This document shows, in pieces, positions 6,578 to 42,862 of a stretch of DNA of 42,862 bases; position 1 is the stretch's first letter, and each line of letters begins with the position of its first letter. Location of the stretch: assembly GCF_004010195.1 (NCBI RefSeq), contig NC_057719.1:3720152-3763013 (forward strand), read 5' to 3'. Position numbers and translations under genes: made by a program. Under the pieces are notes generated by a model, which saw only the letters and a list, made by a program, of their open reading frames with translations, was not told the DNA's origin and searched no databases. The DNA comes from Chiloscyllium plagiosum. Taxonomy: Eukaryota.

Positions 6578-7595
6578 CCTTATAGTGTGGAAACAGGCCA
6601 TTTGGCCCAATGAGTCCGCTCTCTGAAGAGCATCCCACCCAGACTCACCACTCCTGTAACTCTGCATTTCCCATGGCCCGCCCCTCCAATCGCCACCAGG
6701 ACAGAACCCCACTGGTCCTCACCTACCACCCCACCAACCTCCAGATACATCGTATCATCCGTTGTCATTTCTGCCACCTCCAAACGGACCGCACCACCAG
6801 GGATATATTTCCCTCCCCTCCCCTATCAGCATTCCGGAAAGACCACTCCCTCCGCGACTCCATCGTCAGGTCCACATCCCCCACCAACCCAACTTCCACT
6901 CCCGGCACCTTCCCCTGCATCCGCAAAAAATGCAGAACTTGCACCCACACCTCCCCCCTCACTTCCCTCCAAGGCCCCAAGGGATTCTTCCATATCCATC
7001 ACAANNNNNNNNNNNNNNNNNNNNNNNNNNNNNNNNNNNNNNNNNNNNNNNNNNNNNNNNNNNNNNNNNTTTCTCCAGCTTCTTCATTTCCCCTCCCCCC
7101 ACCTTGTCTCAGTCCCAACCCTCGGATTCAGCACCGCCTTCTTGACCTGCAATCTTCTTCCCGACCTCTTTGCCCCCACCCCCTCTCCAGCCTATCACCT
7201 TCACCTTAACATCATCCCACCTATCGCGTTGCCAATGCCACTCCCTCAAGTCCCTACCTTTTATCTTAGCCTGCTTGGCACATCCTCCTCATTCCTGAAG
7301 AAGGGCTTATGGCCGAAACGTTGATTCTCCTGCTCCTTGGATGCTGCCTGACCTGCTGTGCTTTTCCAGCAACACATTTTTCATTTCTCATGGCTAATCC
7401 ACCTAAACATCTTTGGATGCTATGGACAATTAGCATGGCCAATCCACCCTAACCTGCACATCTTTGACTGTGGGAACAAATCGGAGCAAACCAGCACAGA
7501 CACGGGGTGTCTGTGCAAACTCCACACACGCAGTCGCCCAAGGCTGGAATTGAACCCTGGCATTGTGAGGTAGGAGTGCTAACCACTGAGTCACC
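6578..7595 (-). mobile_element. V-SINE (HE1-like), split by a PLE
   Basis: tRNA-like head (actcagtggttagcac...gggttcaattcc) and V-domain gtgtggagtttgcac at 7400-7595; tail at 6578-6677. Confidence 0.85.
6678..7381 (+). mobile_element. Penelope-like element (Neptune-type) 3' fragment with pLTR
   Basis: RTPLVLTYHP...AFRKDHSLRDSIVRS...PCIRKKCRTC linker typical of Neptune PLEs; pLTR with hammerhead at 7295-7322; TSD catttc(c/t)catggc at 6665-6677 and 7382-7394. Confidence 0.88.
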
Positions 7596-8854
7596 TAGAC
7601 AGGACAGTGAAGAAAGCATTTGGTATGTTTTATTGGTCAATACATTGAGTATAGGAGTTGGGTTGTCATGTTGCAGCTGTACGGGGCATTGGTTAGGCCA
7701 TTTTTGGAATATTGTGTTCAATTCTGGTCTCCCCGCTATAGAAAAGATGTTGTGAAACTTGAAAGGGTTCAGAAAAAATATACAAGGATATTGCCAGGGT
7801 TGGAGGATTTGAGCAATACAGAAATCAAGAGACTTTTTTCCCTGGAGCATTGGAGGCTGAGGGGTAACCTTTTTGAAGTTTATAGAATCATGAGGGGAAC
7901 GGATAGGGTAAACAGTCAAGGTATTTTCTCTATAGAAGGAGAGTCCAAAACTAAGGTTTAAGGTGAGATGGGAAAGATTTAGCGGGGACCTAAGGGGCAG
8001 CTTTTCCACACAGAGGGTGGTGCGTGTATGGAATGAGCTGCCAGAGGAAGTGGTGGAGGCTGGTACAATTAAAACATTTAAAAGGCATCTGGATGGGTAT
8101 ATGAATAGGAAGGGATATGGGCCAAGTGCTGGCAAAAGGGACGAGGTTAATTTAGAGTATCTGGTTGGTGTGGGTAAGATGGACCAAATGGTCCATTTCT
8201 GTGCTGTACATGTTGATGACTTTATGATTCTAAATGCTGGAATATTTTATTAAGGTGGATGTAGCGAGGCAGTTGGAAAATCAAAATGTAATTGGACAGA
8301 GTCAACTTGATTTTGGGAAAGACAATTTATGTTTGGGGAAATCGTATCTGACTAAGTTTTTGGAGTGTTTCTGAGGAAATAGCAAGCAATGAGGATAAAG
8401 AGGAACCTGCTTCAACTAGATGTCCAGAAGACATTTCAACAAGATGTCAGCACTTTGTCCAAAACTCTCCATCTGCACTACCCTGCCCTCTATACAGCAA
8501 ATAAAAGCAAAATATTGCAGATGCTAGAATCTGAAACAAAGAGAAAATGCTGGAGGAACTCAGCAGGTCTAGTAGTATTTGTGGAGAGAGAAACATAGTT
8601 AATCTTCTTCAGAACTGGAAGATGTTGAAAAATAGGCTATTTTTATACTTTTGACAGAGACAGAGGAGGAGCAAGTGGACAGATGGTGTAGAGATACAGT
8701 GAAAAATGTAAAGTGTTTGTTAATAAAGTGAAGGACTGAAACATAGGATTGTTCTCTCAGTAGAGAAGATGACTGGTAGTGGTTTACCTGAGGGTCACCA
8801 TGCCTCAGGTACGGAGAGAAGAGGTTGAGAAGGAGAGTCTTTCATGGCAACCAC

Positions 8855-9455
8855 TGTTGTGGACGAGGCTGGACCCCCTCAAAACATTTCAAGAAGGTAG
8901 CCCAGACCCTCACTTTGTTAGTTATTTTGAGCAGGTGTATGGTGGATATCCCAGGAGTGATGCAGCTGGCCCAACCACTCAGTTTTAAACAAAACAGAAT
9001 TCATTTTACACATGAACAAAAGCAAATTGAATTTAGAATAACAACCTATCTGAAACCCCAGGTGACTCTCTCGCAACTTAATGATGCTGTTCCAAATATT
9101 TGTGCCATCCCCATAAACACCCCCTTGGCAAAAAAAAGATAAAATCAAACACAGGTTCTTATAGGAGAGAGATTGTAGAGAGAGAGAGAGAGAAAGAGAA
9201 AGAGGGGTTCAGCCTGGAGCTGTTTCTCTGGGTCCAGCAATAATTGACTACTTGCTAAAACCAAACCAAACCAAACCAACCCCTGAACTGGGACAACTAG
9301 CCATTTCCCTTTCATTGTAAAAGTGTTTTAAAAGAAAGACTTAAAAGCATTCTCAAATAAATAAACCCAGACATATCGGAACCTCTGACTTTACGACCCC
9401 CTCTGAAAAGAAAATAAGGATAATTTAATCTTGTTAAAGGAGCAGCATCGTCACA
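8855..9455 (-). mobile_element. Solo LTR (601 bp) inserted in a tRNA-derived SINE
   Basis: TGT...ACA termini and 4-bp TSD CCAC (8851-8854, 9456-9459); related sequences at ~9820-9975 and 38784-39059. Orientation is tentative. Confidence 0.72.
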
Positions 9456-9982
9456 CCACAGCAAGTATGGAAATTGAACTCACACCGTTGGCATTACTCT
9501 GCATTACAATCCAGCCATTTCGTCATTTGAGCCCTTGGGTCTTGGCAGGGATCCTGATGATTGAGGGGAGGAGCTAGACAAAGCACAATCCAAAACAAGT
9601 CCTCAATAGTGATTTAGGTGGAAGCCATTCATGTGATATCAGTGGTGAGGACAGTGGATAAAGGCTGCGGCTGTATGGAGAACCCCAGTCAGCAAGGTCT
9701 CCTTATCCCTAGAACTGGATCTACCTTTTGTCAAAGGCTGTGTGTCTGCTGATGTACAGCAGCATTCCGACATAAAAGATGTCCTGCACATGATCCCAAT
9801 CGGAACTATCAGAACAAATCCTCAAAACATTTGAAGAAGGTAACCCAGACCCGAGTTTTGCGAGTTGGTTTAAGCAGTCAGAACGCAGGTATTCCAGGAC
9901 GGATTAAGCTGGCCAAGCCCCATTAGTTTTAAACAAAACAGAATTTATTTCCAAGATTACGAAATTATTACGAACAAAATCG

Positions 9983-10444
9983 GATGGATGTTGTGAAACT
10001 TGAAAGAGTTCTGAAAAGATTTACAAGGATGTTGGAGGGTTTGAGCTACAGGGAGAGGCTGGAAAGGCTGGAGGCTGAGGAGGTTTATAAAATCATGAGG
10101 GGCACAGAAAGGGTAAACAGACAAGCTATTTTTCTCCGGTGTGGAGGATCCAGAGCTAGAGGGGTGTAGGTATAAGAGAAAAGATGTAAAAGGAACCGAA
10201 GAGGCAACTTTTTCATGTAGAGGGTGGTGTGTGTGTGTGGAACGAACTGCCAAGGAAGTGGTGGGGGCTGGTCCAATTACAACATTTAAAAGGCATCTGG
10301 ATGGGGGGACATGGATAGGAAGAGTTTAGAGGGATATGGGCCAAGTGCTGGCAAATGGGGCAAGGGTAGTTAAGGATATCTGGGCCGACAGGGACGAGCT
10401 GGACCAAAGGGTTTGTTTCCATGCTGTACATCTCTATGACTCTA
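9983..10444 (+). mobile_element. CR1 3' fragment following an LTR-related fragment (~9790-9980)
   Basis: DVVKLERVLKRFTRMLEGLSYRERL and ctctatgactcta tail. Confidence 0.85.
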
Positions 10445-10703
10445 GGTTGTGTACCGAGAGGAATTTAACCCCCTGCTCTCTCTTGTTACTCCTCTGTTAT
10501 TGACAAAATATAAGGAAAAATATATTTTCCAACACCTTCCAGATCTGGAGAAGAGTCATACTAGATTTGAAACGTTAACCTTTTTAGCAGATCAGGCTTA
10601 AGAGTCATCTGCATACCCATCAGAATCTTACCAAACACACCAGAATTTAGTCACTGTCTTTTCTCAAAACACATATTATGAATCTGCAAAAGCCGGCAAA
10701 TAC

Positions 10704-10871
10704 CTTTCCTTCACCGATTTTGCAGTTTCTCTGGGGTACAGGGTCAGAAAGGGTAGGTGTTCGATCTTCATGTTCAAACCCAGGCTCATGCGCTTCAAAG
10801 TGGCCATGGGACCTAAGGGATTCTCTTTTTGTGGTCCTTTCTGCCCGGGAAGGCGCTGCTTTAAGCTGCAT
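10704..10871 (-). CDS. Probable AGBL3 tail exon, reading frame ambiguous
   Basis: 168 nt, strong acceptor atctttctttcttgcag, donor AAG|gtattt. Open in phase 0 (MQLKAAPSRAERTT...IGEGK) and phase 2 (CSLKQRLPGQKG...SVKE). Confidence 0.6.
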
Positions 10872-11013
10872 CTGCAAGAAAGAAAGATCTGCATTTGAAT
10901 ATCACATTTCACAACCTTTACAGTCATTTAAAGTGCTGCTGCAGTGGTATTGGATGAAATGTGACAACAAATATTTGTGTGGGATGACTCAACAAACAGC
11001 AGTGAGATATTTA

Positions 11014-11240
11014 AGAAAGTGAGGACTGTAGATACTGGAGATCAGAGTCAAGAGTGCGGTGCTGGAAAAGCACAAGCAGCATCCGAGGAGCAGGAGAATC
11101 GAGTATAAGCCCTTCATCAGAAAGCAGTGAGATATTTACACACGCAAAAGCGGAAGTTACTGGAAAAGCTTAGCAGGTCCGACAGCATTTGTGGAGCGAA
11201 ATCAAAGTTAATGTTTCAGGTCCGGTGACTCTTCAGAACT
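11014..11240 (-). mobile_element. Two tandem solo PLE pLTRs from different families
   Basis: 11014-11122 has 16-bp TSD agcagtgagatattta (10998-11013, 11123-11138); 11139-11240 is followed by a third target copy caatgagatattga. Both end at a hammerhead core. Confidence 0.8.
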
Positions 11241-12660: not shown

Positions 12661-14272
12661 CTGAGGGACAAATTTTAATCAGAAGGTTTCATTCTTGATA
12701 ACTAGCACACTATAATGGGAAGGAAAAAGGAATGGTTTCGAATCAATTATGACTAAGAACTGGTAGCTTGTGGATATGGCTGACAAAGGCATATTTTATG
12801 GAAGCATTTCATTTTGCACCCATCTAGAAAATTTGCAAGATATACCAACTAAAGGGGAAAATGAACATTTATACTGCATGAGAGGGAAGTTCTCTTTGAT
12901 TGGCAAATGGACCTTACCACAATAGAAATATTGTTCTGGAGAATCTACCAATTAATGATGATTGACATTTAACTACCTGTTTAAATTTTAAAGCATACAG
13001 GTTGACTGTCAATGGTGAGAACATTATCCCTGACAAATATATCATCAAATGGCTGTCACCTATTTTGTTGGGTATAAATATTTGCACCTACATGTTCTTT
13101 CTGTCTGACAAGGATTGATCTGTAATTCAGTGCACGATGCTATAGTACGGAAAAATGCATTCCCTCGTTTTGGACAGGCAGCGAGGACAAATACCTGCCC
13201 AGAATTAAAAAGAGGAAAAGGGGAAAATAAGTGACTTCTAAAATCCCAAACTGGAGAGATAGTGGTAGCAGTGAAGCTGGCATAAGGTTGCAAGTTGTAA
13301 CTGCTTCTGGAAGCACTTGTTTCGATGTGCCCATCAGACATTAGGGCACCTATTCTTTTCAGAGTAGGTATCCCACTTCTAAGACAGGCCAAAAGCAGCG
13401 AATACAACTCAGACTGCACTGGCCAGGACCCGTAACCCTGGAGCATGCCACATGACCCAGGCAAATGGGGTCAGGTTGACTGAGTCCAGTCAGGCACGTC
13501 CCATCAACTGGGCTGGAGGGTTGCGTTGGGTGCAGATGGCTATTTCCACCTAAGTTTTCCATTAACACCTCAGGTTAATTGGCAGTGAAGCAGGAAGCTG
13601 AAAATGTGTTGCTGGAAAAGCGCAGCATCCAAGGAACAGGAGAATCAATGTTTTGGGCATAAGCCCTTCTGGAAGGCAAATCTTGCCCTTTGCTCTGCTG
13701 AGGAATTGGACAGAGTGAAGAAGACTATGGGCACTCCATCACCTGCCTCCTCTATGCCAAGAGAGAGAGTCTAACAGCATTACCAAAAGAACTAGGGCCA
13801 GGAAATAAACAGCTTGCATTATGTACACACTGTCCTTCATACCGTAATGCCCAAAAACATTTTCTAGCATGTTGTGGTGGGAAGACAGGCAACATCAGAG
13901 GCACTGCTCAAGGTAGTATAAAGTGGCAGAACAATAGGTGTTGGCACTTTATTATCAGGGTGGGAACAGAGGGACAAGTTGATCTGAGGGAAAGAGAATA
14001 ACAGAACTGATGAGCTGGAAGCAAGGGATTTTGTAAACGTCCTCAAGCAGAGAAAGAAAATCCAGGGATAATGAGAAAAAATAGAATTGTATTCATAGCT
14101 GAATTGTTTTTCAAAAGACCTATCCCAATGTCCCGCCTGCAATAGTCAATTCTCTAATTCTATCGTATGATTGGATTCCTGGATGGCACACATGAATTAC
14201 TCAGTGAATGCTTTTCATTCTCATTATCCTTAATCAGCCTAAGGACACATCCATGACTAATGTAGCACTTAC

Positions 14273-18010: not shown

Positions 18011-19436
18011 TGTGCTCTCTCAGGGCAACTTTACTTTGCAATTTGAGAGGGAGAAGCTGGAATCAGATGTAACAGTATTACAGCTAAATAAAGGTAACTA
18101 TCGAGGCATGAGGGAGGAGGTGACCAGAATTGACTGGGAGAAGAGCCTAGCAGGAAAGAGAATGGAACAGCAATGGCAGGAGTTTCTGGGAGTGATTCGG
18201 CAGGAACATAAAAATTCATCCTGAGGGAAAAGAAGCATACTAAAGAGAGGACAAGGCAACCATGGCTGACCAGGGAGTCAGAGACAGTATAAAAGCAAAA
18301 GAGAAAGCATATCATACAGCGAAGGGTAATGGGAAGCCAGAGAATTGGGAAGCCCACAAAGATCAACAGAGGACAACTAAATAAGAAATGAGGATGGAGA
18401 AGACTAAGTATGAGGGTAAGCTAACCAGTAATATAAAAGAAGATTAAAGAAACTATTGCAGATATTTGAAAGGCAAAAAAGAGGCAAAAGTGGACCTTGA
18501 GCTGCCAGAAAATGAGGCTGGAGAAGTAGTAATGGGGAACAAAGAAATGGTGGAGGAACTGAATAAGCACTTTGTGTCAGTCTTAATTGTAGAAGACATG
18601 AGTAACATGCCAAAGATTCATGCAAATCAGGGGGCAGAAGTGAGTATAGTGACCATTCCCAAGTCTCAGATGGAAGAAAAACTGAAAGGTCTGAAGGATA
18701 AATCACCTGGACCAGATGGACTACATCCCAGAGTTCTAAAGGACATAGGTATACGTGGTCATCTTTCAGGAATCACTGAAGTCGGGGAGTGTCCAATCAT
18801 TAATGTAACCCTTCTGTTTAAGAAGGGAGTGCAAAAGGCAGGAAATTAGCCTGACCTCAGCCATTGGCAAGGTTTTGGAGTCCATGGTGAAGGATGAGAT
18901 TTCTGAATACTTAGAAGTGTATGGTAAAATAGGGGAAAGTCAGCATGGTTTCATTAAGGGGAGGTCAACAGGTTAGACCAAGGAGAGCCAGTGGATGTTA
19001 TCTACCTGGATGTCAAGAAGGCCTTTGACAAGGTGCCACACAGGAGGCTGCTGAGTAAGATAAGGGCCCATGGTGTTAGAGACAAGGTCCTAGCATGGAT
19101 AGAAGCTTGGCTGTTTGGCAGAAGGCAGAAAGTGGGGATAAAAGAGTCCTTCTCAGGTTGGAAGCTGGTGAGAAGTGGTCTTCCACAAGGGTTGGTGTTG
19201 GGGCCACAACTTTTCACTCTATACATTAATGATCGAGATGAAGGAACTGAGGGAATGCTGGCTAAGTTTGCAGATAATACAAAGATAGGAGGAAGGACAA
19301 GTAGCATTGAGGAGATGGGGAGGCTGCAGAAAGATTTAAGGAGAAAGTGAGGACTGCAGATGCTGGAGATCAGAGCTGAAAATGTGTTGCTGGAAAAGCG
19401 CAGCAGGTCAGGCAGCATCCAAGGAACAGGAGAATC

Positions 19437-19464
19437 GACGTTTCGGGCATAAGCCCTTCTTCAG
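19437..19464 (-). ncRNA. Minimal hammerhead ribozyme motif, intact core
   Basis: Minus strand reads CTGAAGA-A-GGGC-TTAT-GCCC-GAAA-CG-TC. Confidence 0.75.
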
Positions 19465-20469
19465 GAATGAGGAAAGTGTGTCCAGCAGGCTNNNNNNNNN
19501 NNNNNNNNNNNNNNNNNNNNNNNNNNNNNNNNNNNNNNNNNNNNNNNNNNNNNNNNNNNNNNNNNNNNNNNNNNNNNNNNNNNNNNNNNNNNNNNNNNNN
19601 NNNNNNNNNNNNNNNNNNNNNNNNNNNNNNNNNNNNNNNNNNNNNNNNNNNNNNNNNNNNNNNNNNNNNNNNNNNNNNNNNNNNNNNNNNNNNNNNNNNN
19701 NNNNNNNNNNNNNNNNNNNNNNNNNNNNNNNNNNNNNNNNNNNNNNNNNNNNNNNNNNNNNNNNNNNNNNNNNNNNNNNNNNNNNNNNNNNNNNNNNNNN
19801 NNNNNNNNNNNNNNNNNNNNNNNNNNNNNNNNNNNNNNNNNNNNNNNNNNNNNNNNNNNNNNNNNNNNNNNNNNNNNNNNNNNNNNNNNNNNNNNNNNNN
19901 NNNNNNNNNNNNNNNNNNNNNNNNNNNNNNNNNNNNTGCCTGTGGGAGTGGTAGAGTCAGCATCTTTGGTGACCTTTAAGCGGCAATTGGATAGGTACAT
20001 GGATGGGTGCTTAAGCTAGGACAAATGTTCGGCACAACATCGTGGGCCGAAGGGCCTGTTCTGTGCTGTATTGTTCTATGTTCTATGGTCTATGTTAACC
20101 CAACCTCCACTCCCGGCACCTTCCCCTGCAATCGCAAGAAATGCAAAACTTGCGCCCACACCTCCCCCCTTACTTCCCTCCAAGGCCCCAAGGGATTCTT
20201 CCATATCCGCCACAAATTCACCTGCACCTCCACACACATCATCTATTGCATCCGCTGCACCCGATGTGGCCTCCTCTATATTGGAGAGACAGGCCACAAG
20301 GACATTAGTGAACCAGATAGGTTTTTCGACGGTTGGAGGAAGAGCGCCTCATCTTCCGCCTAGGAACCCTCCAACCACAAGGGATGAACTCAGATTTCTC
20401 CAGTTTCCTCAATTCCCCTCCCCCCACCCTACCTTTTATCTTAGCCTGCTGGACAAACTTCCCTCATTC

Positions 20470-20497
20470 CTGAAGAAGGGCTTATGCCCGAAACGTT
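20470..20497 (+). ncRNA. Minimal hammerhead ribozyme motif
   Basis: CTGAAGA-A-GGGC-TTAT-GCCC-GAAA-CG-TT. Confidence 0.7.
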
Positions 20498-22379
20498 GAT
20501 TCTCCTGTTCCTTGGATGCTGCCTGACCTGCAGAAAGATTTAGACAGGTTTGGAGAGTGGGCAAAGAAGTGGCATGTGGAATACGTGTGAGAGTGTAGGA
20601 AGTTTGGTAGAAAGAATAGAGGCATAGATTATTTCCTAAATGGGGAGAAAATTCAGATTTTGGAAGTGCAAAAGGATTTAGGAGTCCTAGTCCAGGATTC
20701 TCTTAAGGTAAACTTGCAGGTTGAGGTGATAGTTAGGAAGACAAATGCAATGTTGGAATTTATTTTAGAATATAAAAGCAGAGATGTCCTTCTGAGGCAT
20801 TATAAGGCTCTGATTAGACCACATAGAGAATGCTGTGAGCAACTTTGGACCCCACACCTCAGGGAGGATGTACTGACCCTGGAGCGGGTCCAGAGGAGGT
20901 TCACCAGAATGGTCCCAGGAATGAAAGGCTTAACATAAGAGGAATGTTTGAGGACTCTGGGACTATATTCAAGGGAGTTTAGAAGGTTGAGGGGAGATCG
21001 AATTGAAGCTCACAGAATACTGAATGGCCTGAATAGATTGAATGTTGGAAAAATGTTTCCATTAGCAGGACTCAATGGCGCAGCCTTAGAGTAAAGAAAA
21101 TACCTTTTAGAATAGAGATAAGGAGAAACTTCTTCAACCAGAGAGTTGTGAATATAAGGAATTCATTGCCACAGAAGGCTGTGGAAGCCACATCATTTAG
21201 TATATTTAAACAGAAATATTTAGGTTCTCGATTGTTAAGGACATCAAAGGGAGAAGGTGGGAGAATGAGGTTGAGAAACTTATCAGCCATGATTGAATGG
21301 TGGAGGAGACTCACTGGGCCAAATGATCTAATTACTGCTGCTATGTCTTATGATCTTAACTCCCTCCTGACTCTAAAGCATTGTATAACCACCTCTGCTA
21401 GGTCTGTCCTGTTGGTGAGAAAGGACATATTCAGGGATGGTGATGGTGGGGTCTGAGACACTGTCTGTAAAATATGATTCCATAAGTGTGACCATGTCAG
21501 GCTGTTGCTTGACTAGTCTGTGAGGGAGCTTCCCAATGTTGGCACTAGCCCCCAGATGTTAGTGAGGAGGACTTTACAGGCTCGACAGGTCTGTTTCAGC
21601 CATTGGCCTTTCCTGTGCCTTGGTCCTTGCCAGGTGGTCTGTCCGGTTTCATTTCTTTGTTGAGACTTTGTAGTGATTGAAACAACTGAATGGCTTACAC
21701 GGCCATTTCAGAGGGCTGTTGAAAGTCACCACATTGCTGTGTGTATTCTCAATGCAAATATGGGACTTTATCTCCACAAGAACTGTGTAGTGGTCGCTTT
21801 TACTGATAATTTCATGGACAGATGCATCTGCAACTGGTATATTGGTAAGGATAAGACTAAGTTAAATGTTCCTTTTTGATGGATTCCTCACCGCCTGATG
21901 CTGTTCATACTATATATCATTCTTCTTCCTCTTAGTAGAGCATCCAACAGCAAGGAGGATATTTGGCCCATCTTGTCTGTGTTAACATTTTGAAAGGATT
22001 AACCAATTGTTTCTATTATCCCTGCTCTTTCCCTATTTTTTCATGTTCACTATGTATCCAATTCCACTTTGATCGATATGACTGAAACTTCTTACACTGC
22101 CCTTTCAGGCAACACATTCCAGATTACAACTGACTTAAAATAATTACTCACTTAAAACACACACAAAAAAAACTTCTCATCTCCTTACGTGTGTTTGTAT
22201 ACAACATGTCTGTGTTACTCTCTCTCTATCACTATCTCTTTGTGTGTGACTGTTTGCTTCTATCTTTTGCTTTTCATTTCTCTTTTACTCTATTCCCCTT
22301 TATATCTCTTCCTTTTTATGTTGGTCCCTCTATCTCTCTGCCTTTGCCTGTATCTCTCTCTCTTTCTAAGAATCCCCAC

Positions 22380-23087: not shown

Positions 23088-23268
23088 GAATGTGTATCCT
23101 GATGTCTATCCTCCAATCTTTGAACTCTGATACCGTGCATTCCTTTTCGTCTGCACCATCAGCGGCAGGACCTTCATCCCCAAATACTGGAACTCTCTCT
23201 AAGACCTTCTGTTCAAGTCGCTCTTTCTTCCCACCTTCCATACCATTTCAACTGTGCCTGAAGCCATC

Positions 23269-23396
23269 CTGAAGAAGGGCTTATGCCCGAAACGTCGATT
23301 CTCCTGTTCCCTGGATGCTGCCTGCCCTGCTGCGCTGTTCCAGCAACACATTTTCAGCTCTGATCTCCAGCATCTGCAGACCTCACTTTCTCCTCT
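23269..23396 (+). mobile_element. Solo PLE pLTR (128 bp) starting at an intact hammerhead core (23269-23296)
   Basis: 11-bp TSD ctgaagccatc (23258-23268, 23397-23407); CTGAAGA-A-GGGC-TTAT-GCCC-GAAA-CG-TC. Confidence 0.88.
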
Positions 23397-23805
23397 CTGA
23401 AGCCATCTCCTCAACTCCTTTGAGTTCTACATGGATGTGACATGGTTGCAACAATTACTTGCAACACCCAACAATTAGGTGACTATGAACCATCATGCAA
23501 ACAGCTTCAAGGATTTCTCGATGGTTCCCAAGAGGTAGGAGGCTTAGGATACAATTCCCAAGCTTCCTGTATCCTTTTGGTGTGTCCTCCTCACACAGAC
23601 GCTAAAAGGCTGAGCATCAGCAAGAGATTTAGTTTGCAACAGCTAACAGATTGGGTTTGTACCCTTTAACGTTGGGAAGAATGACAGTTGATCACATTGA
23701 ACCGTGTAAATCCTGAGGGGAGTTGATAAGGTGAATGTTTCCTCCTGGGAGAACTCCATTTAGAGGACACAGTTGAAGAATAAGACATCTGCTTGTTAAC
23801 AAGGA

Positions 23806-24107
23806 AGTGAGGACTGCAGGTGCTGGAGGTCAGAATCAACAAGTGTGGTGCTGGAAAAGCACAGTGGGTCAGGCAGCATCCGAGGAGTAGGAAGGTCAAT
23901 GTTTCAGGCATAAACCCTTCATCAGGAATGTGTCCTCTAAATGCAGTTCTCCCAGGAGGAAATATCCACCCTATCAACTCCCCTCAGGATCTTACACATT
24001 TCAATGGGATCAACTGTCATTCCTGATGAAGAACTTATGCATGCAATGTCAATTCTCCTGCTCCTTGGATGCTGCCTGACCTGCTGCGCTTTTCCAGCAC
24101 CACTCTC
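23806..24107. mobile_element. Inverted pLTR pair enclosing an inverted copy of flanking DNA
   Basis: pLTR(-) ~23806-23928, spacer 23929-24022, pLTR(+) 24023-24107; TSD-like ttaac(a/t)agga at 23796-23805 and 24108-24117. Confidence 0.8.
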
Positions 24108-25203
24108 TTAACTAGGATACTGTAAACCTTATTAGTTTCACTCTGCTCCCATCCTGTCACTTTCAGTGTTTCTGTGGTCTAATGTTCTTGACACAGTCCT
24201 TTCTTATTCAACACCAAAACATTAACAATGTTTACTATGAATGAAAACTTTCAACTGATTATTCCCTGATTAGTTTTGGGATGCGGAAGTATTATTAGGG
24301 TAACTCCTCAATGGTGCCTTACTAAGACCAACTAACTCAGCAGAGACTAGGAGAAGACTGCAATTTCATTTAGACCCAGATCAGATTTACTTATCTAAAG
24401 GACGTTATTGATCCAGTTTAACCTTTATGACAATCCATGGCTCCATTTTCATCAGTAGATACTTAATTTCAGATTTTTTGAAAATTGATTTCTGATTCCA
24501 CCATCTGCTGTGGTGGGATTTGAACCCAGGCATCTAGAACGTTAGCTGAGTCCCTGGATTAACAGCCTTGCAATTATACCACCAAGCCATCGTAACCCTG
24601 AATGTGTATCCTGATATCCATCCTCCAATCTTTGAACTCTGAACAATACGTTTATGGCCATTTTGCTGAGACTATTTTTACTATCAGCATTTTTAAAAAT
24701 GTGTTTATTCAGTGAAAGTATCATTCCTCAAGATTATTCAGCTAGACTCTAATAATCCATTAATGTGGATTATTCAGTGGCACACCTGGCTATACCATTA
24801 GCCAGTAGACTGGTGGTGTTTAATCCTCTGGTACGACTCCCGTGTCACAGCACACTGGTGAGCTGCGATGAGGTGGGAGGTGTGCTGTGGAATTTTCTGG
24901 GAGTTGTGCTGCTTATCTGAGCATCGAGACAGTGTCTGCGCCTCTGATCTCCTCTGGAGCCTTTATGTCTACTATTGAAGGCAGTATCTCTGACAACAGG
25001 CGCCCTGATCGACTGGGCTAGCACAAGCCTCCAGAGCAGCATATGCGTAGACTTGAAAAGAAGGGGGTATGCTATGGAATTGTTTGACTCATTCAATTGT
25101 GCCTTGATACTAAAAAGATTGGGGACCACTACAGTAAACCAATGGGAGCCATTAAAAGGTAGAGGAAGGGATGATATAAATCAACACGCTTCTTAGGCAG
25201 AGG

Positions 25204-25421
25204 CGAAAATGTGTTGCTGGAAAAGCGCAGCAGGTCAGGCAGCATCCAAGGAACAGAAGAATCGACGTTTTGGGCATAAGCCCTTCTTCAGGAAACATGA
25301 AGAAGGGCTTATGCCTGAAAGGTTGATTCTCCTGTTCCTTGGATGCTGCATGATCTGCTGCGCTTTTTCAGCAACACATTTTCGGCTCTGATCTCCAGCA
25401 TCTGCGGTCCTCACTTTTTCC
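25204..25421. mobile_element. Palindromic PLE pLTR insertion
   Basis: Arms of ~85 bp joined at back-to-back hammerhead cores; 15-bp TSD cttcttaggcagagg (25189-25203, 25422-25436). Confidence 0.88.
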
Positions 25422-29634: not shown

Positions 29635-30262
29635 AGATGTTAGAAAGAAAAACTTGGGATGTGAATTTGACTTGGTTTGGTTGATGAATGTGTGAAATAT
29701 GAGATTTGACAGGTTTTGGAATGAATAGTCAGGGATCCAAGGAATAGATGTGAAATTAGGCATATATTAACTGTGAGGTAAAAGCAATGACTAAAGATGC
29801 TGGAAACCAGATTCTGGATTAGTGGTGCTAGAAGAGCACAGCAGTTCAGGCAGCATCCAAGGAGCTTTGAAATCGACGTTTCGGGCAAAAGCCCTCAATC
29901 AGGCCTTTATTCCTGATGAAGGGCTTTTGCCCAAAACGTTGATTTCAAAGCTCCTTGGATGCTGCCTGAACTGCTGTGCTCTTCCAGCACCACCAATCCA
30001 GAATATATTAACTGTGAAGTCATTAGATGTTGAGATGTGAGATTGGAAAACTGTTGAGATGTAAGGTCAGTAGATTTTGGGATGTGAGATAGGGAATGTA
30101 TTGGGATGCAAGTTCAGTAGTTGTTGGGATGTAAGATTGGGAAAACGTCGGGATGTGAGGTTGGGAAAAAGTTGGAATGTGAGGTCAATAGATATTAGGA
30201 TTTGAGATTGGAAAAATATTGGTAAGTGAAGTTAGATAGGTGTCACAATGTAAAGATGGGTA
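29635..30262 (+). repeat. Degenerate ~22-bp minisatellite interrupted by a pLTR palindrome
   Basis: Recurring ttgggatgtgagattgggaaaa-like units on both sides of 29777-30002. Confidence 0.7.
29777..30002. mobile_element. Palindromic PLE pLTR insertion
   Basis: Arms of ~90 bp, back-to-back hammerheads at 29875-29902 (-) and 29913-29940 (+); 15-bp TSD atatattaactgtga (29762-29776, 30003-30017). Confidence 0.88.
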
Positions 30263-31244
30263 GACAATGAAATTATTAGTGTGGGATATGTCCATGCAAA
30301 AATACTCTATAAGAAACACAAAAAAAGATCAGGCAACATCTGTGGAGAGAGACCAAGAGCCAACATTTCAGGTCAATAATCTTCCATCAGAAGAAGTTTA
30401 CATTCTGGAGTCTGATTTCAATCTGAGGGACGGGGGGCACTTTGATGACCATTTTTCAAGCCTGCATAGATTAGTTGATTAAAAAAAAATTCTGCAGGGT
30501 GGAACAAAGCCATAGGATGTTCCAAGCTGTGTTTATCCAAAACATCCTTAGAGCTACTATATTGATGATAAAATTGGCCTCATTATCTGGAGTTGAGATG
30601 AGCAAAGCAAGTTTGTTTTCCTTTCAGTAACAGAATGTACACTTGTGTAGATTGTAGGAAGGAGATTGGACTGTTTTAGTCTTTGATCTTGCTCTCCTCC
30701 CAACACATCAAGTTTTCTGCCATACCACATTTATCATGTGAAAATGCCAGGTACAGGAGCATAGGAACAAGTGAGTTCAGCAGAAGAGGTAAGTTCTCCA
30801 TTTCCTTGTGTTCACACTGTCACTTAAATGTTCCATGTATTTGAGATGTTGATTTTAAAAAAAGACGTTGCATTTTTATGACAACTTCCTTGATCTCACA
30901 ACATCCCAAATTCCCCAACAGACAATGAAGCACTTTGAAAAGAGTAGTGACTTTTGTAATGCAGGAAATGCACCACAAGCAACAGTGAAACAATAACAAG
31001 ATAAACTGAGTGATTTGGTTTGAGGGATCTTCCCAGAGAGCAGGTAGTTCCCCTCTCTTCTTTCTTCACTAATACGATGGAATCTCCTAGATTCATCTGA
31101 GAAAGTATATATGGCCTCAGTTTGATGCTTAATTCAAGAGATTATACCTCACTGTGCAGTACTCCTTCAATACTCCTTCTGAAGAGTCAGCTTGGATTCA
31201 AGTTTACGACTGTAGAGTGAAACTTGAATTTGCAACCTTGACTG

Positions 31245-32180: not shown

Positions 32181-32683
32181 CTGCAATGAAACAATCAGAG
32201 TCAAGATTCAAATAGCTTATTTTCAATATGTTGCTTTGTTGGAGGAAATGGGGACTGGCTCCCACCATATGTTCACTGGCAATCCAACTGGAACAACTGG
32301 GAACTGAATCACCAACCTAATATTCCTTAAACAGGTTTGGAATTGAGCACCTGCCTATCCTTGCAAGATCATTGATTTTAAGGGGACAAGGCTAAAGAAA
32401 TTGGAATGGACTCCCCAAGACCAGCACCTTCTACATCCTCAGTTAGGTTTCTTTTTCTATTCATGCATATGATGTGGGCATCACTGGCTGGACCAGCATT
32501 AATTGCCCATCATTCGTTTCCCTTGAGATAATGAGTTTTCCTGTTGAACTGCTGCAGTCATTCTACTATAGGCAAATACAGACTGCCATTAGGGATGGAG
32601 ACCCAGGACTTTGACTCAGTGACACCAGAAGAACTGCAATATATTGGGACGTGTATCTCACCATGCGCACTTGATCAAAGCAC

Positions 32684-32880
32684 ACTTTGGAGATGCCAGT
32701 GTTGGACTGGGGTGTACAAAGTTAAAAATCACACAACACCAGGTTATAGTCCAACAGGTTTAATTGGAAGCACACTAGCTTTCGGAGCGACGCTCCTGAT
32801 GAAGGAGCGTCGCTCCGAAAGCTAGTGTGCTTCCAACTAAATCTGTTGGACTATAACCTGGTGTTGTGTGATTTTTAACT
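32684..32880. mobile_element. Palindromic PLE pLTR insertion, third family
   Basis: Near-perfect ~80-bp arms with CTGATGA at the apex; 13-bp TSD ttgatcaaagcac (32671-32683, 32881-32893). Confidence 0.85.
32796..32824 (+). ncRNA. Minimal hammerhead ribozyme motif, AGCT stem-III variant
   Basis: CTGATGA-A-GGAGC-GTC-GCTCC-GAAA-GC-TA. Confidence 0.72.
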
Positions 32881-33479
32881 TTGATCAAAGCACCACCTAG
32901 TGGTCTGGGCCAAGGTGGAAACAAATATTTCCCTAAGGATATGGGGGACAGATGAAAGCCACAATATATTCAGGTAGTAGGACTGCAAATTAAATATGTT
33001 TGTGAGGCTCCTGCGTACGTTAACAGTCATTTTAATCTTCATATAAAATGATAAACTCAGAGTTGCTTAGAATAGTATTTTCTGGGCTCAACAAGGGTCT
33101 AAGTTGCTATGGATCTGGTGTTATGCATAATTAACAATGTATTATGTATTGTTAGGAATCTCATATAAAGGGAATTTCCCACGAAGAGAGATCATAATTG
33201 CAAAAACTTTCACACTCAATTTCAAAATAATACACTTAATTCCAATAAAATTAAATAATCTAAATTAAATAAATCCAATTAGTTCGACAGAAGGAATGAA
33301 TTAGGTAGTGTCAGTTGGGAAATCAGATTAAAAGGTAGAAAGACATAACCAAAAATGTTAATAAACATACAAATTTTCTATGAATACATATTTCACTAAG
33401 CAATAAAAACTCTGTCACAAAAGTGATCATCTGTGGTTGCCAGAAGTGGTCAAAGATATATTAGATTCTAAAAGGAGTT

Positions 33480-34597: not shown

Positions 34598-35102
34598 AAT
34601 TCCACTAACTGCTATGGCAAGATTCGAACTTGGATCCCCAGAACATTTATCTGGGTCACTGGATTGATAGAAGGAAGTGAGGCCCGCAGATACCGGAAAT
34701 TCAAGGGTCGAATTGTAAATGGGAAGGCATTAGCCTAGTAGTATTATTGCTAGACTATTAATTCAGAGAGTTGAAAAGGGTGGCACTAGAAAAGCACAGC
34801 AGATCAGGCAGCATCCGAGGAGCAGGAGAATCGACGTTTTGGGCATAAGCTCTTCATCAGGAATGTCGATTCTTCTGCTCCTCGGATGCTGCCTGACCTG
34901 CTGTGCTTTTCTAGTGCCACCCTTTTCAACTCTCTGAATTAATAGTCCAGCAATAATACTACTAGGCTAATGCCTTCCCATTTACAATTCGACCCTTGAA
35001 TTTCCGGTATCTGCGGGCCTCACTTCCTTCTATCAATCCAGTGACCCAGATAAATGTTCTGGGGATCCAAGTTCGAATCTTGCCATAGCAGTTAGTGGAA
35101 TT
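34598..35102. repeat. 238-bp near-perfect inverted repeat with a hammerhead in the 29-nt loop
   Basis: 34598-34835 is the reverse complement of 34865-35102 with about 3 mismatches by eye. Confidence 0.92.
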
Positions 35103-36139: not shown

Positions 36140-37705
36140 TTGCCTGGACCAGATGGGCTACACTCTAGAGTTCTGAAGAACCTAACTGAAGATATAGTGG
36201 TAGCTTTAGTTGTGATCTTTCAGGGATCACTGGAGTCACAGAGAGTCCCAAAGGGCTGGAAAATCACTAACTCCCTGTTTAAGAAGGGAGCAAGGCAAAA
36301 GACAGGAAATGATAGGCCGATTAGCCTGACCTCAGATTTGGTAAGATTTTGAAGTCCATTGTGGAGGTTGAGATTTCTGAATACTTGGAAGTGCATTGTA
36401 AGATATGGTAAAGTCAGCATGGTTTCATCAAAGGGAGGTCAAGCCTGACAAATCTGTTAGAATTCTTTGAGGAGGCAACAAGCAGGTTAGATCCAGGAAA
36501 GCCAATGGATGTTATCTACTTGGACTTCAAGAAGGCTTTTGTATTGCACAGGAGGCTGCTGAGTAAGATAAGGGCCCATGGTGTTAGAGGTATGGAGAGA
36601 AGCTTGGCTGTCTGGCAGAAAGCAGAGAATGGGGATTAAAGGTCCCTTCTCAGGATGGCAGCCGGTGACAAGTGGTGTTCCTCAACGCTCAGTGTTAGGA
36701 CCACAACTTTTCACTTTATACATTAATGATCTGGATGAAGGAACTGAGGGCATTCTGGCTAAGTTTACAGATGATACAAAGATCAGTGGAGGGACAGGTA
36801 GTATTGAGGAGGCAGGAAGGCTGCAAAAGGATTTAGACAGGTTAGGAGAGTGGGCAAAGAAGAGGTAGATGAAATACAATGTTGGAAAGTGGGAGGTTGT
36901 GTACTTTGGTTGGAAGAATAGAGGCATGGACTAGTTTCTAAAAGGGGAGAAAATTCAGAAATTGGAAGTGCAAAGGGACTTGGGAGTCCTAGTCTAGGTT
37001 TCTCAAAAGGTAAACTTGCAGTTGAGTCAGTACTTAGGAAGGCAAATACAACATTATTATTCATCTCAAAAGGACTAGAATATAAAACCAGGGGTCCCTC
37101 TGATGTTTTGTAAGGCTTTGGTCAGACCATGTTTAGTATATTGTGAGCAATTTTGTGCTCCATACCTCAGGAAAGATGTATTGGCCCTGGAACAGGTCTC
37201 GAGGAGGTTCATGAGAATGATCCTTGGATGATCCCTTCCTGATGAAGGGCTTATGCCTGAAACATTGATTCTCCTGCTCCTCAGATGCTGCCTGACCTGC
37301 TGTGCTTTTCCAGCACCACAGTCTCGATTCTGATCTCAGGAATTAAAGGTTTAAGGAACATTTGAGGACTTTGGGACTATACTTGATAGAGTTTAGAAGG
37401 ATGACGGGAGATTTAATTGACATTTTCAGAATACTGAACAGCCTGGACAGAGTGGACGTTGGGAAGTTGTTTCCATTAGCAGGAGAGACTAGGATCTGTG
37501 GGCACAGCTTTAGAGTAAAGGGAAAACCTTTTAGAAAGGAAATAAGGAGAAATGGTTTTTAGCCAGAGAGTGGTGAATCTGTGGAATCTATTTCCACAGG
37601 AGGCTGTGAAGGCCAGGTCATCAAGTAGATTTAAAACAGAGAAAGATAAGTTCTTAACTGCCGAGGGCAAACGTTACAGGAAGAAAGTGGGAAAATGGGG
37701 TTTTC
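36140..37705 (+). mobile_element. CR1 LINE, same subfamily as 18030-21357, with a solo pLTR at ~37237-37336
   Basis: PGPDGLHSRVLK, SGVPQRSVLGPQLF, AKFTDDTK, RRMTGDLID; the pLTR begins ttcCTGATGA at 37239. Confidence 0.92.
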
Positions 37706-38520
37706 ATAGTTTCATAGTAATAGAGGCAGGGATAGGCCATTTGGCCTGTTGAGCCTGCACTGCCACTAATTAAGGTCATGGTTGATATATCCATCATCCC
37801 AGCTCCTCCGACCTGCATTATCCCCATAACCCTTAATTTCCCTACTATGCAACAACCCATCCAACTGGGTCTTGAATATATTTAATGAAGCTGCCTCTAC
37901 TGCTTCCCTGGGCAGAGAATTCCATGGATTCACTACTCTCTGCAAAAGCAATTCCTCCTTATCTCTATCCTAAATCTACTTTCCCTAATCTTGAGGCCAT
38001 GTACTCTAGTCCTAGTCTCACCCACCTGCAGAAACAGCTTTTCTGCCTCAATCTTATTTATCCCTTTCATAACTTTATAAGTTTCTATAAGATCCCCTCT
38101 CAATCTTCTAAATTCTAGTGAGTACAGTCCCAAGCGGCTCAACCTGTCCTCAGAGGGTAACCCCTTCACCTCCGAAATCAACCTCTGCGCTCTGGTGACC
38201 CTCCTCTGCACTGCCTCCAAAGCCAGTGTATCCTTCCTCAAGTAAGGAGACCAGGACTGTGCACAATACTCCAGGTGCGGCCTCACCAATGCCTTGTACA
38301 ATTGCAGCAGAATTTCCCTGCTCTTAACTCCAATCCCTCCAGCAATGAAAGCCAATATTCCACTTGCCTTCCTGATTACCTGTGGCACCTCCAAATCAAC
38401 TTTTAGCGATGCTTGTATGAGCACTCCTAAGTCCCTCTGTACAATAGCACGCTGCAATCTTTCACCATTTCAATAATACTCTGATCTATTATTTTTAAAA
38501 AGTGAATAACGTCACAATTA
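37706..38520 (-). mobile_element. CR1 LINE 3' part, tail-to-tail with the previous copy
   Basis: QRDLGVLIQASLK...RPHLEYCAQSWSP...RRLRGDLIETYK; (ctatgaaa)n tail at ~37703-37718. Confidence 0.92.
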
Positions 38521-39577: not shown

Positions 39578-39686
39578 ATTGTGAAGAAAAATCAGAGTTA
39601 ACGTTTCGGGTCCGGTGACCCTTCCTCAGAACTGATGGTAACTGGGAAAGGTGGGTTTTCATGCAGAAGATAGGGTGGCGGGGGGG

Positions 39687-39726
<40 letters not shown>

Positions 39727-41220
39727 AGTCTGCTTTGCCATTCAGTAATGGCTGAAAAACAGTTGGACAAACAAAGGAGTGGACAACGATCTGGCCGGGA
39801 GGATGAATAGCTGTTAATGGAGACTGTCAGTGACTAACAAAGGGTTGTGCATAACTATGTGATTACAAGGCCTGGTGTATAGTGGTGTATAGTGGTGGCA
39901 GGGGTGATCGATTGGCTCGGACATAGGAGAGTTCAAGCTCTAAAGTTGTTGAAATCAATATTAAGTCCCAAAAGCTAAAGGGTCCCCAAGCGGAACACCA
40001 GGTATTGTTCTTCCAGCTGACACTGAGCTTTGCTGGAGCACTGAGGCAGAGATATTGGCCGGGGTCAGGGTGGTGTGTTGTGGCACGTGACTGGAAACTC
40101 AGCATCATTTTCGCAGGCAGAATGTGATGTTCCAGTGTAGAGGAGATCACATTGTGAGCAGTGAATGCAGTAGACTATATAGTGTGAATGCAGGTAAAGC
40201 ATCACTTCACCTGAAAAGTATATTTGGGCCCTTGAGGAGGGAGGAGGTAAATGGGCAAGTGTTACGCCTTCGGTGATTGCAGGGGAAGGTGTCGTGGGGA
40301 TGTGGGGGCTGTTGGGAGTGAAGGGAATAGTCCCTACAGAAGGCAGACAAGGGAGGAGAGGGGAATGTGTGTCTGGTAGTGGCATCTTTTTGGAGGTAGC
40401 GGAAATGGCAACTAATGATTTTCTGGATGTGGATGCTTGGTGGGATGGTAGATAAGGACAAGGGGAAGAGAGGGGCTGAGGCCGAAGTTCCAGAGCTGGA
40501 GCAAACAGTTGGGATCTAGTCTGCTGCATTCACTGCTCACAATGTGATCTCCTCTATATTGGGGAAACAAAGCGTCGAACACCTCCATTCTGGCTGCAAA
40601 AATTACACTGAGTTCCCAGTCGCCTGCCACTTCAAAACACCACCCTGATCCCTGGTCAATATCTCTGTCTCAGGCTTGCTGCAGTGCTCCAGTTTAGCTT
40701 AGCATAAGCTGGAAGAACACCTCATTTTCTGGTTGGAGACCCTGCAGCCTTCGGGACTTAACATTGATTTCAATAACTTTCGAGGTTGAACTGTCAACTG
40801 TCCTAGCCAACTGATCCCACCCTCCCACCCCCAACCACCACCACTAACACACACCAGGCCTTGTAATCACATAGTTACACACAACCCATAGTTAGTCACT
40901 AACAGTCCCCATTAACAGTTATTCACCCTGGCTACCTTTGCCTGCCCAACTGTTTTTCTCTCTCTTTGAGCTCTATCCCCACTTACTGTTTACTCCTTAT
41001 TAATCCCACCACCACCACCCCCCACCCCCACCAGCCCCCAGCTTCTATCTAAAACCCACATTTTCCGAGCAACCATCAATTCAGAGGAATGGTCAACAGA
41101 CCTGAAACTCTATTAACTCTGATTCTCTTCACAGAAGCTGCCAGACCCGCAGTGCTTTTCCAGCAATATTTGGTTGTGTTTCTAATTTACAGCATCCACA
41201 GCTCTTTCGGTTTTCATTTA
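39578..41220. mobile_element. Two head-to-head Penelope-like 3' fragments (minus ~39578-40460; plus ~40520-41220)
   Basis: GIY-YIG relics IVYCIHCSQCDLLYTG(T) on minus and CIHCSQCDLLYIGET on plus; pLTRs at both outer ends. Confidence 0.82.
39600..39629 (-). ncRNA. Minimal hammerhead ribozyme motif, fourth family
   Basis: agtt-CTGAGGA-A-GGGTC-ACCG-GACCC-GAAA-CG-TT-aact; the flanks AGTT/AACT can form a 4-bp stem I. Confidence 0.75.
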
Positions 41221-41367: not shown

Positions 41368-41612
41368 AGGTAAAAACAATGACTGCAGATGCTGGAAACC
41401 AGACTCTGGAGTGGAGTGGTGCTGGAAAAGCACAGCAGTTCAGGCAGCATCCGAGGAGCAGTAAAATCAACATTTCAGGCAAAAGCCCTTCATCAGGAAT
41501 ATAGGCAGAGTGCCTGAAGGGTGGAGAGATAAATGAGAGGAGAGTGGGGATGGGGAGAAAGTAGCATAGAGTACAATAGGTGAGTGGGGGTGGGGATGGA
41601 GGTGATAGGTCA
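41368..41612 (-). mobile_element. PLE pLTR / 3' UTR fragment
   Basis: Same family as 29777 and 42720; CpG-decayed hammerhead at 41469-41496. Confidence 0.82.
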
Positions 41613-41619
41613 TATTCAT

Positions 41620-42418
41620 TTTCGTCATTTATATAAATGATTTGGATTTGAACATAGGATGTATAGTTAATAAGTTTGCAGATGACACCAAAATTGGAGG
41701 TGTAATGGACATCAAAGAAGGTTACCTCAGAGTACAACTGGATCTTGATCAGATGGGCCAATGGACTGAGAAGTGGCAAATGGAGTTTAATTTAGATAAA
41801 TGTGAGATGTTGCATTTTGGAACGGCAAATCAGAACAAGACTTATACACTTAGTGGTAAGACCCTGGGGAGTGTTGCTAAACAAAGACGCCTGGAGTGCA
41901 GGTTCATAGTTCCTTGAAAGTGGAATCTCAGGTACATAGGATATTGGAGAAGCCATTTAGTATGCTTTCCTTTAGTGGTCAGAGCAATGAGTATAGGAGT
42001 TGGGAGGTCATGTTGCGGCAAGGAGGACATTGGAATATTGTGTGCAATTCTGGTCTCCCTCCTATTGGAAGGATGTTGTGAAACTTGAAAGGGTTCAGAA
42101 AAGATTTACAAGGATATGCAAGGGTTGGAGGGTTTGAGGTATAGGGAGAGTTTGAATCGGCTGGGGATGTTTTCCCTGGAGCGTTGGAGGCTGAGGAGTG
42201 ACCTTATAGAGTTTTATAAAATCACAGAATTTATGATTAGGATGAACAGACAAGGTCTTTTCCATTGGTTGGGGGAGTCCAGAACTAGACGGCATAGGTT
42301 TAGGGTCAGAGGGGAAATATATAAAAGGGACCTAAGGGGCAACTTGTTCACGCAGAGGGTGGTATGTGTATGGAATGAGCTGCCAGAGGAAGTGGTGGAG
42401 GCTGGTAGAATTACAGCA
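41620..42418 (+). mobile_element. CR1 LINE fragment
   Basis: NKFADDTKIGG, EKWQMEFNLDKCE, FTQRVVCVWNELP. Confidence 0.92.
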
Positions 42419-42719
42419 TCTTTGCAGACTTGATCTTTATTGGGTATATTATCTTTTATCTCAATTTTAGAAATTTCTGCGCAACTACTGAAAGAAATTA
42501 ATTAGATTTTGAGGGAGAGTTCATCAAGGCGTGGAGCTAATCTGATAGTTCTTTCAAAGACCAAGCCCGGATACAATGGGATGGATGGAGTGGAGGTGGT
42601 GTAATGGTAACGTTCACCTGGGCTATTAATCCAGAGCCCGAGGTTAATGTTCTAAGAACATGGGCTTGAATCCTGCCATGACCTATACCATGGTGGTGTA
42701 TGGGTTAATGTAACCACTG

Positions 42720-42862
42720 TTCTGGAGTAGAGTAGTGCTGGAAAAGCACAGCAAGTCAGGCAGCATCCAAGGAGCAGTAAAATCGACGTTTCGGGCAAAA
42801 GCCCTTCATCAGGAATAGAGGCAGAGAGCCTGAAGGGTGGAGAGATAAATGAGAGGAGGGTG
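42720..42862 (-). mobile_element. PLE pLTR running off the window, with an intact hammerhead at 42785-42812
   Basis: Minus strand reads CTGATGA-A-GGGC-TTTT-GCCC-GAAA-CG-TC. Confidence 0.85.

Follow-up and report, generated by a model that had tools for sequence, protein, structure and literature searches.

Penelope-like element pseudo-LTRs with minimal hammerhead motifs in the AGBL3 introns of Chiloscyllium plagiosum, and their probable copying from uncut transcripts

In the genome of the shark Chiloscyllium plagiosum, a stretch of 42,862 nt (contig NC_057719.1, positions 3,720,152 to 3,763,013, here called the window) lies inside the gene AGBL3/CCP3 and contains numerous short hammerhead-ribozyme motifs. 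These motifs are minimal hammerheads within the pseudo-long terminal repeats (pLTRs), situated at the 3' ends, of GIY-YIG Penelope-like elements (PLEs) belonging to at least four families. It is fairly probable that most copies are 60-130-nt insertions of PLE pLTR, produced by reverse transcription that began within the front pLTR of uncut RNA and continued off the capped 5' end. The observations underlying this reading are the PLE origin of the copies, their fixed 3' ends with or without a tail, their target-site duplications (TSDs), the accumulation of 5' ends at the upstream edge of the ribozyme, and an extra G before the start in family A. The very many insertion junctions found here record the template.

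The PLE origin is indicated by coding remnants associated with longer copies. A GIY-YIG domain (PF01541) was detected above the Pfam cut-off in one longer copy, and reverse transcriptase (RT) sequence with the YIDD motif was found in the same reading direction in other copies, with RVT_1 matches below the cut-off. The arrangement of RT followed by a C-terminal GIY-YIG domain upstream of the pLTR is that of endonuclease-positive PLEs; an intact full open reading frame (ORF) was not recovered. Among 67 regions upstream of long copies, 43 match PLE proteins and 24 do not. Endonuclease homology upstream of long copies ties families A, B, C and E securely to PLEs, and family D through a single locus (L200, 27-33% identity), two further family D matches belonging to neighbouring elements. 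A CX2-5CxxC linker between RT and endonuclease was seen at L200 and at window positions 20094-20279, a segment encoding the linker and GIY-YIG for which a first look gave 66,478 candidates genome-wide; such a linker is common to Neptune and Nematis elements (PMC8557442) and points to elements of that type. Because they are located in PLE pLTRs, the motifs represent the known minimal hammerheads of Cervera and De la Peña (2014, PMC4209133). A sequence-only reading of the window had proposed a PLE pLTR origin and at least four families, and both points are supported.

The motifs themselves were defined with a descriptor comprising CTGANGA, a stem II of at least 3 bp, GAAA, a palindromic NN and TH. 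It matched core plus stem II at 10 places in the window and the intact motif at 6 (+20470, +23269, +32796, -19464, -39629 and -42812); 100 dinucleotide shuffles averaged 0.25 and 0.01, respectively. The earlier estimate was about six intact cores. All 22 sites previously listed, whose minus-strand coordinates mark the cleavage-site end of the motif, contain a motif or a decayed remnant, those at 10545, 30390 and 41081 being strongly decayed and recognisable, by eye, only through their likeness to family C. The core CTGANGA...GAAA...TH, with a G-C pair closing stem II, is that of a minimal type I hammerhead. An Rfam search at E<=10 returned no hammerhead family, only hairpin microRNA models below their gathering scores. 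Beyond the window, 70 sampled loci (680 kb) contain 43 intact motifs, against 0-1 in 10 shuffles. The wider sample used below comprises 163 loci of 10 kb, placed at round coordinates and confined to large contigs.

Covariation of stem II, by which the sequence-only reading had asked to be judged, is present as two-sided pair changes in 107 intact motifs from the window, its flanks and the sampled loci, which represent few master lineages and are not independent events. Pairs were counted by structural anchoring; a MAFFT alignment misregistered family D and was hence not used. Pair 1 is G-C in 96 and G-T in 11 motifs, pair 3 is G-C in 84 and A-T in 22, and pair 4 is C-G in 80, G-C in 22 and T-A in 4. 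The centre of stem III is CG in 71, GC in 21, TG in 14 and GT in 1, a palindrome that allows dimer formation. Stem I, absent from the earlier description, also covaries (pair 2 is T-A in 74 and A-T in 21), with compensatory changes between families; it measures 4 bp in A-CTGT and C, 3 bp in D and 1 bp in E, and consists of 2 bp, a U.U mismatch and 1 bp in A-TTAT and B.

The most telling feature of the copies, one that the sequence-only reading missed, is where they begin. Copies were located through their 3' part, so that the ribozyme played no role in finding them, with 16 real long copies as alignment references; the young set comprises 254 of 427 copies from families A, B and D with an identity of 88% or more over 35 nt or longer, families C and E and older copies having been dropped. 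The 3' ends in the first 123 loci are bimodal, lying +52 to +65 and +89 to +100 past the cleavage base, and these two clusters correspond to the PLE tail and to the pair of RT start sites known from the anole element (PMC11167929). At the other end, 149 of the 254 young copies start between -14 and +10 relative to the first core base, and 7 start at the cleavage site (+26 to +31). Expressed as a rate, 5' ends occur at 7.5% per nt from -10 to 0 (92 events in 1232 at-risk positions), compared with 2.2% at +1 to +10, 0.53% at +26 to +34 and 0.40-0.44% from -21 to -240. A mismatched reference was rejected as the cause of this accumulation, since 58 of the 254 are long copies aligning beyond -14 and TSD-bounded solo copies share the same start. 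Because the copies start at the upstream edge of the ribozyme, with only 7 at the cleavage site, the templates of insertion were uncut.

These junctions bear directly on a cycle like that of retrozymes, proposed in PMC4209133, in which dimeric hammerheads would cut the RNA and a monomer or circle would serve as template. Such a cycle is very improbable here: beyond the scarcity of starts at the cleavage site, the units are dispersed or inverted without head-to-tail arrays, the depth of poly(A)+ reads of family D is unchanged across the cleavage site (1193 to 1204), and a religated circle, which would hide the cut, would give no fixed start at -4. In its favour, lineages with endonucleases only about 27-47% identical have the same conserved core and palindromic stem III, and because of this conservation the ribozyme has clearly been under selection in the master lineages. 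A template that was uncut, and probably capped just before the ribozyme, speaks against either cleavage or circularisation being the normal path to insertion.

The base immediately before the start supplies the evidence for a cap. In family A-TTAT, where the element itself has C at -5, the base preceding A(-4) is G in 3,444 cases, A in 1,634 and T in 646, and 2,086 of the G cases remain when those with a preceding G are set aside; sampled base composition is 0.21 G and 0.29 T. In a control one position later, G is depleted (818 versus 5,328 C/T). Among the first 30 loci with the extra G, none continues into the element's own upstream sequence, on which ground a subfamily variant was rejected as its origin. 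Capped full-length L1 insertions are likewise marked by an extra G (PMC11702581; PMC4038843).

Under the preferred reading of cap-terminated copying, transcription would begin about 4 nt before the ribozyme core, at a putative RNA polymerase II start site, reverse transcription would start inside the front pLTR of the uncut RNA and run off the capped 5' end, and the extra G may be the copied cap. The sequence at the start, TCATTCC, is one that we take to be initiator-like. In the anole element, two internal RT start sites exist and uncut RNA is the main substrate (PMC11167929). It is unlikely that the 5' edge is instead no start at all and reflects RT stalling past a folded or protein-bound hammerhead, or 5' exonuclease trimming to a protein footprint. 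The accumulation does coincide with stem I in three families of differing sequence, the ends spread from -14 to +10, and the anole hammerhead is protein-assisted (PMC11167929); neither stalling nor trimming, however, predicts a G at one specific site, the template base there being C, and the predicted structure is weak, with a stem I of 2-4 bp and an active fold that is not the minimum-energy fold in A-TTAT, B and D-GTC.

Paired copies extend this picture. Head-to-head pairs number 88 and account for 176 of the 427 copies (41%), compared with a single tail-to-tail pair. In 37 of 40 young same-family pairs a tail is present on one arm and absent from the other, and a TSD of 10-17 bp (mode 15 bp) flanks 34 of the 40, against 1 of 40 in the control; in 10 of the 11 typed pairs both arms belong to one subtype, against 0.20 by chance. 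A tail of 30-40 nt on one end, an inverted 5'-truncated copy and a TSD constitute the layout of endonuclease-positive PLE insertions. The pairs may arise when both nicked target strands serve as primers on transcripts from a single master, each at a different one of the two internal start sites. An identical inverted junction, joining arms at +9 and -1, recurs at the unrelated loci L110, L119, L141 and L088, which differ in their TSDs and span more than one subtype; this suggests a preferred joining point in stem II. At L013, L088, L225 and window position 34862, an arm starting at -4 is joined through stem I complementarity to an arm that starts at or near the cleavage product; folding back of the complementary DNA (cDNA) is a possible origin of these pairs.

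Short copies outnumber long ones (149 versus 58 of 254), as would be expected if the mini-copies formed a self-renewing class resembling short interspersed elements (SINEs), transcribed from an internal promoter at -4 and mobilised in trans. The cap signal is compatible with such a class, which differs from cap-terminated copying only in the master, and an internal promoter is known in Penelope (PMC2377424). It is nonetheless decidedly unlikely, because short and long copies of the inspected A subtypes share diagnostic letters (by eye), pair junctions differ between copies, and 92% of the 2,801 family A RNA reads continue into unrelated sequence, the behaviour expected of segments carried along in other transcripts.

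These reads come from a single-cell poly(A) run, possibly of a relative, whose library cannot show caps or short cleavage products. They reproduce the genomic 5' junction, with 151 loose ends at -4 in family A; the alignments of families A and D contain no ends at the cleavage site, which the library is unsuited to showing. Among 3,069 family D reads, poly(A) is added at +29 (378) and +32 (457) past the cleavage base, downstream of ATTAAA and at sites where the aligned copy has no A run. AATAAA or ATTAAA is present in 46 of 56 family D pLTR copies (including L111:462-482). In family A, 22 of 186 copies have AATAAA, and the CTGT/ATGT subfamilies (L140, L040, L072 and others) have it about +54 past the cleavage base. 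Within the window, the minus arm of the family D pair (32678-32797) presents ATTAAA in the AGBL3 sense within an intron and could end AGBL3 transcripts early.

A more tentative proposal, possible although we would not favour it, combines these boundaries: the pLTR would be a true LTR with the hammerhead as its R segment, bounded by a start some 4 nt upstream of the core and, for family D, by poly(A) about 30 nt past the cleavage site. RT start sites would then persist only in the front pLTR of most transcripts and would therefore yield mostly cap-terminated mini-copies, near a million of them, with no role for ribozyme cutting in insertion.

Several observations weigh against cap-terminated copying from a PLE master. 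A full-length tandem pLTR-ORF-pLTR master was not recovered, and the seven loci with long open frames proved, among the matches listed, to be N gaps. Not all elements begin at the ribozyme edge, since Penelope of Drosophila virilis starts about 120 nt upstream and has an intron ending at helix I (PMC2377424, PMC4209133). The 5' accumulation is weaker in family B (4.2% per nt, n=52). Inspection by eye of the first 30 G loci showed only 9 Gs to be clearly untemplated, whereas in 18 loci the target or the partner arm has the G as well and in 3 it lies in filler. Annealing to the target of a cDNA with an extra terminal C would account for the 18 shared Gs, 4 of which are equally explained by the partner arm. 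In family D the G excess is weak at one position (103 G versus 180 C/T, or 36% versus 30% expected) and inflated by A>G changes, and the genome-wide counts of the extra G cover families A and D. Finally, neither RNA alignment (families A and D) contains a pile of molecule starts, which a library of this type could hardly show, and family A has no pile of molecule ends either. A conserved 3' splice site just 5' of the ribozyme, as in D. virilis, was also considered and dropped, AG being absent from the CTGT subfamily and some B variants.

The load of these copies in the 3.56-Gb genome is very large, as the sequence-only reading had anticipated. One exact pattern for intact A/B/E cores gave 93,494 genome-wide matches with none in the control, that is, at least 93,000 intact cores. 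By extrapolation from the 163 sampled loci, 82 intact motifs correspond to about 1.8e5, and 427 pLTR 3' ends (1 per 3.7 kb) to about 9e5, genome-wide. The counted load is about 10 times the highest counts in the 2014 survey, with differing descriptors: the maxima of about 4,000 (coelacanth) and 9,000 (Xenopus) in PMC4209133 were obtained with helix I in the descriptor, and the shark value of 93,494 with a pattern lacking stem I. The earlier figure of one motif per 2 kb holds locally, the window and flanks having one pLTR end per 1.9 kb or about twice the genome density (duplicates still included), and does not extend to the genome, given the sampled average of 1 per 3.7 kb. The 140-kb region close to the contig start, including the flanks L011-L020, as a whole has a pLTR-end density about twice the genome average.

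After insertion, the cores decay neutrally, like their flank. In pooled family A, changes in the core and in base-matched flank amount to 1.0% versus 2.0% at A/T (p=0.10) and 4.5% versus 3.4% at G/C (p=0.27). The earlier suggestion of decay through CpG changes was upheld: CpG positions of CGAAACG are changed in 66 of 441 cases (15%), compared with 23 of 1108 (2.1%) at other core positions, and 13 of 16 non-intact window motifs have a CpG change (by eye). Three head-to-head window pairs were folded and form predicted hairpins of -146 to -181 kcal/mol, one of which includes the construct at 32790-32830 that had been suggested for cleavage assays. The short stem I, the flank-like decay, the burial in hairpins and the unbroken poly(A)+ reads weigh against the earlier view of the motifs as working ribozymes, and the inserted copies are probably inactive in host precursor messenger RNA (pre-mRNA).

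A service to the host through cutting or regulation of AGBL3 pre-mRNA is hardly credible. Three intact motifs in the AGBL3 sense could pair in principle because of their common ACGT palindrome; the potential partners, however, are 3-23 kb apart with a 4-bp stem III, core conservation does not exceed that of the flank (as measured in pooled family A, not for these three motifs), and the gene region is not depleted on either strand (38 sense and 28 antisense copies). With respect to AGBL3 the motifs look like passengers.

Comparison with known systems indicates a known kind of motif, the minimal hammerhead of PLE pLTRs, with a variant mode of amplification and on an unusual scale. The shark motifs resemble those of metazoan PLEs described in PMC4209133 in their type I core, the unpaired base before stem II, the G10.1-C11.1 pair, the palindromic 15.2-16.2 positions without loop 3 and the short stem I, and also in the presence of many families per genome, mostly as solo copies with neighbours on opposite strands. 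They differ in having a stem II of 4-5 bp rather than 7-8 bp, and start positions of solo copies, mapped in the shark, are not given in the accessible text of that study. As in PAc, a Poseidon element of Anolis (Frangieh et al. 2024, PMC11167929), there are two 3' ends about 35 nt apart past the hammerhead, forming the tail, the template is uncut RNA and no reads end at the cleavage site. In contrast to PAc, the shark elements have a CxxC linker before GIY-YIG, of Neptune/Nematis type (PMC8557442), and the cap run-off products proposed here are not described in the accessible text on PAc. The anole hammerhead needs protein and is dispensable for insertion in vitro (PMC11167929).

Inverted insertions with a tailed pLTR are also known (Arkhipova et al. 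2013, PMC3846280; Craig et al. 2021, PMC8557442) and share with the shark pairs the head-to-head 5'-truncated copy, the tail on one arm and the TSD around the whole unit; an initiator-like motif has been noted in pLTRs by the same sources. The shark unit differs in being about 200 bp long, lacking an ORF and accounting for 41% of the sampled copies, and its TSD has a mode of 15 bp, compared with 8-10 bp in the rotifer cases (PMC3846280, PMC8557442). Non-LTR retrozymes (bioRxiv 10.64898/2026.07.22.740005), reported in one chondrichthyan, are likewise non-coding, related to PLEs, equipped with a type I hammerhead and present as dispersed monomers; they are defined by head-to-tail arrays and are reported to be excluded from introns, whereas the shark copies are dispersed or inverted, TSD-flanked, dense in a gene and, in long copies, contiguous with PLE coding remnants. 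Among the window copies no head-to-tail hammerhead array is present, a genome-wide tandem search not having been run. No description of cap-terminated pLTR mini-insertions, of shark PLE hammerheads or of such a load was found in searches of an open-access library; the supplements of PMC4209133 and of the 2026 preprint may include shark families. The junctions place the putative promoter and transcript limits of a vertebrate PLE where they can be tested directly, and the shark copies are useful for testing the role of the PLE hammerhead.

The host gene was located with a splice-site scan and homologues. By tblastn with shark CCP2/3-like proteins, AGBL3/CCP3 spans the entire window and extends beyond both ends, with minus-strand exons at about 35709-35846, 32080-32181, 28910-29035, 27386-27490, 22377-22433, 14273-14389, 12595-12660, 10692-10961 and 770-889. 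One right-flank exon shares 96-97% identity with carpet shark CCP2/3-like proteins, and a Peptidase_M14 domain lies in the window flank. Because these exons map across the window on the minus strand, from past its right end to past its left end, the motifs lie within introns of this single gene, as the sequence-only reading had stated. Pfam scans of window ORFs, in sets of 25 and 142, missed the host gene, and weak matches in them, such as TMEM192 and Pox_M2, were rejected as sub-threshold. About 61% of the window is repeat. Fragments of long interspersed elements (LINEs), presumably CR1-like, are plentiful (1-6000, 7600-8100, 15600-19340, 25850-27390, 36300-38500 and 41600-42440) and carry remnants of AP-endonuclease-type ORF2/RT (RVT_1 matches); several pLTR copies lie inside or adjoin them.

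Individual copies of family A lie on both strands of the window. On the plus strand, a long copy at 7070..7380 has a PLE ORF remnant farther upstream and a hammerhead (7295-7322) with a stem II mismatch; the copy at 20094..20531 comprises the linker and GIY-YIG fragment followed by an intact hammerhead (20470-20497); a solo mini-insertion at 23267..23394 extends from -2 to the tail end with an 11-bp TSD and an intact hammerhead (23269-23296); and a CpG-decayed tail-less solo at 37236..37320 starts at -3. On the minus strand, 11007..11236 combines a family A solo (11007-11123; start -3, core deletion, 16-bp TSD) with a family C remnant (11157-11236), a tail-less copy at 13596..13670 starts at core +4, and the tailed copy at 19334..19491 has an intact AGBL3-sense hammerhead (19464-19437) and a 5' end that enters an N gap. 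Two older copies, facing outward within 23796..24103 (23796-23930, minus strand, tailed; 24017-24103, plus strand, tail-less), are CpG-decayed and start at -5/-6.

Head-to-head family A pairs are found at 25198..25421, with a tail on one arm, a 15-bp TSD and an RNA predicted to form a perfect hairpin, and at 34767..34933, with arm starts at -5 and +22. The latter lies within an inverted repeat (34591-35109; 248 nt, 97%), each arm of which has the same foreign insert of about 90 nt between pLTR body and tail. The head-to-head pair of family D (32678..32883) has a 13-bp TSD, its intact plus-strand hammerhead (32796-32824) being buried in the hairpin. That of family B (29777..30004) has a tail on one arm and a 15-bp TSD, and is adjoined by a degenerate tandem repeat with a period of about 47/24 nt (30013-30235).

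Family C-like remnants identified by eye occur at 10545..10580 (plus strand), heavily decayed, the weakest of the 22 and missed by the 3' anchor search, and at 30361..30390 (minus strand), also decayed. The long family C copy at 39590..40529 (minus strand) has a GIY-YIG remnant upstream, lacks its 3' part and carries an intact AGBL3-sense hammerhead (39629-39600) with the best stem I, of 4 bp; its inverted partner, a long family C copy at 40500..41168 (plus strand), has a decayed hammerhead at about 41081. An inverted insertion of family C (39901-40821), also long, has GIY-YIG remnants in both arms and lies between these two motifs, at 39629 and 41081. The remaining copies, of family B on the minus strand, are a tailed copy at 41369..41612 with a CpG-decayed hammerhead (41496-41469) and a tail-less copy at 42721..42862 with an intact AGBL3-sense hammerhead (42812-42785).

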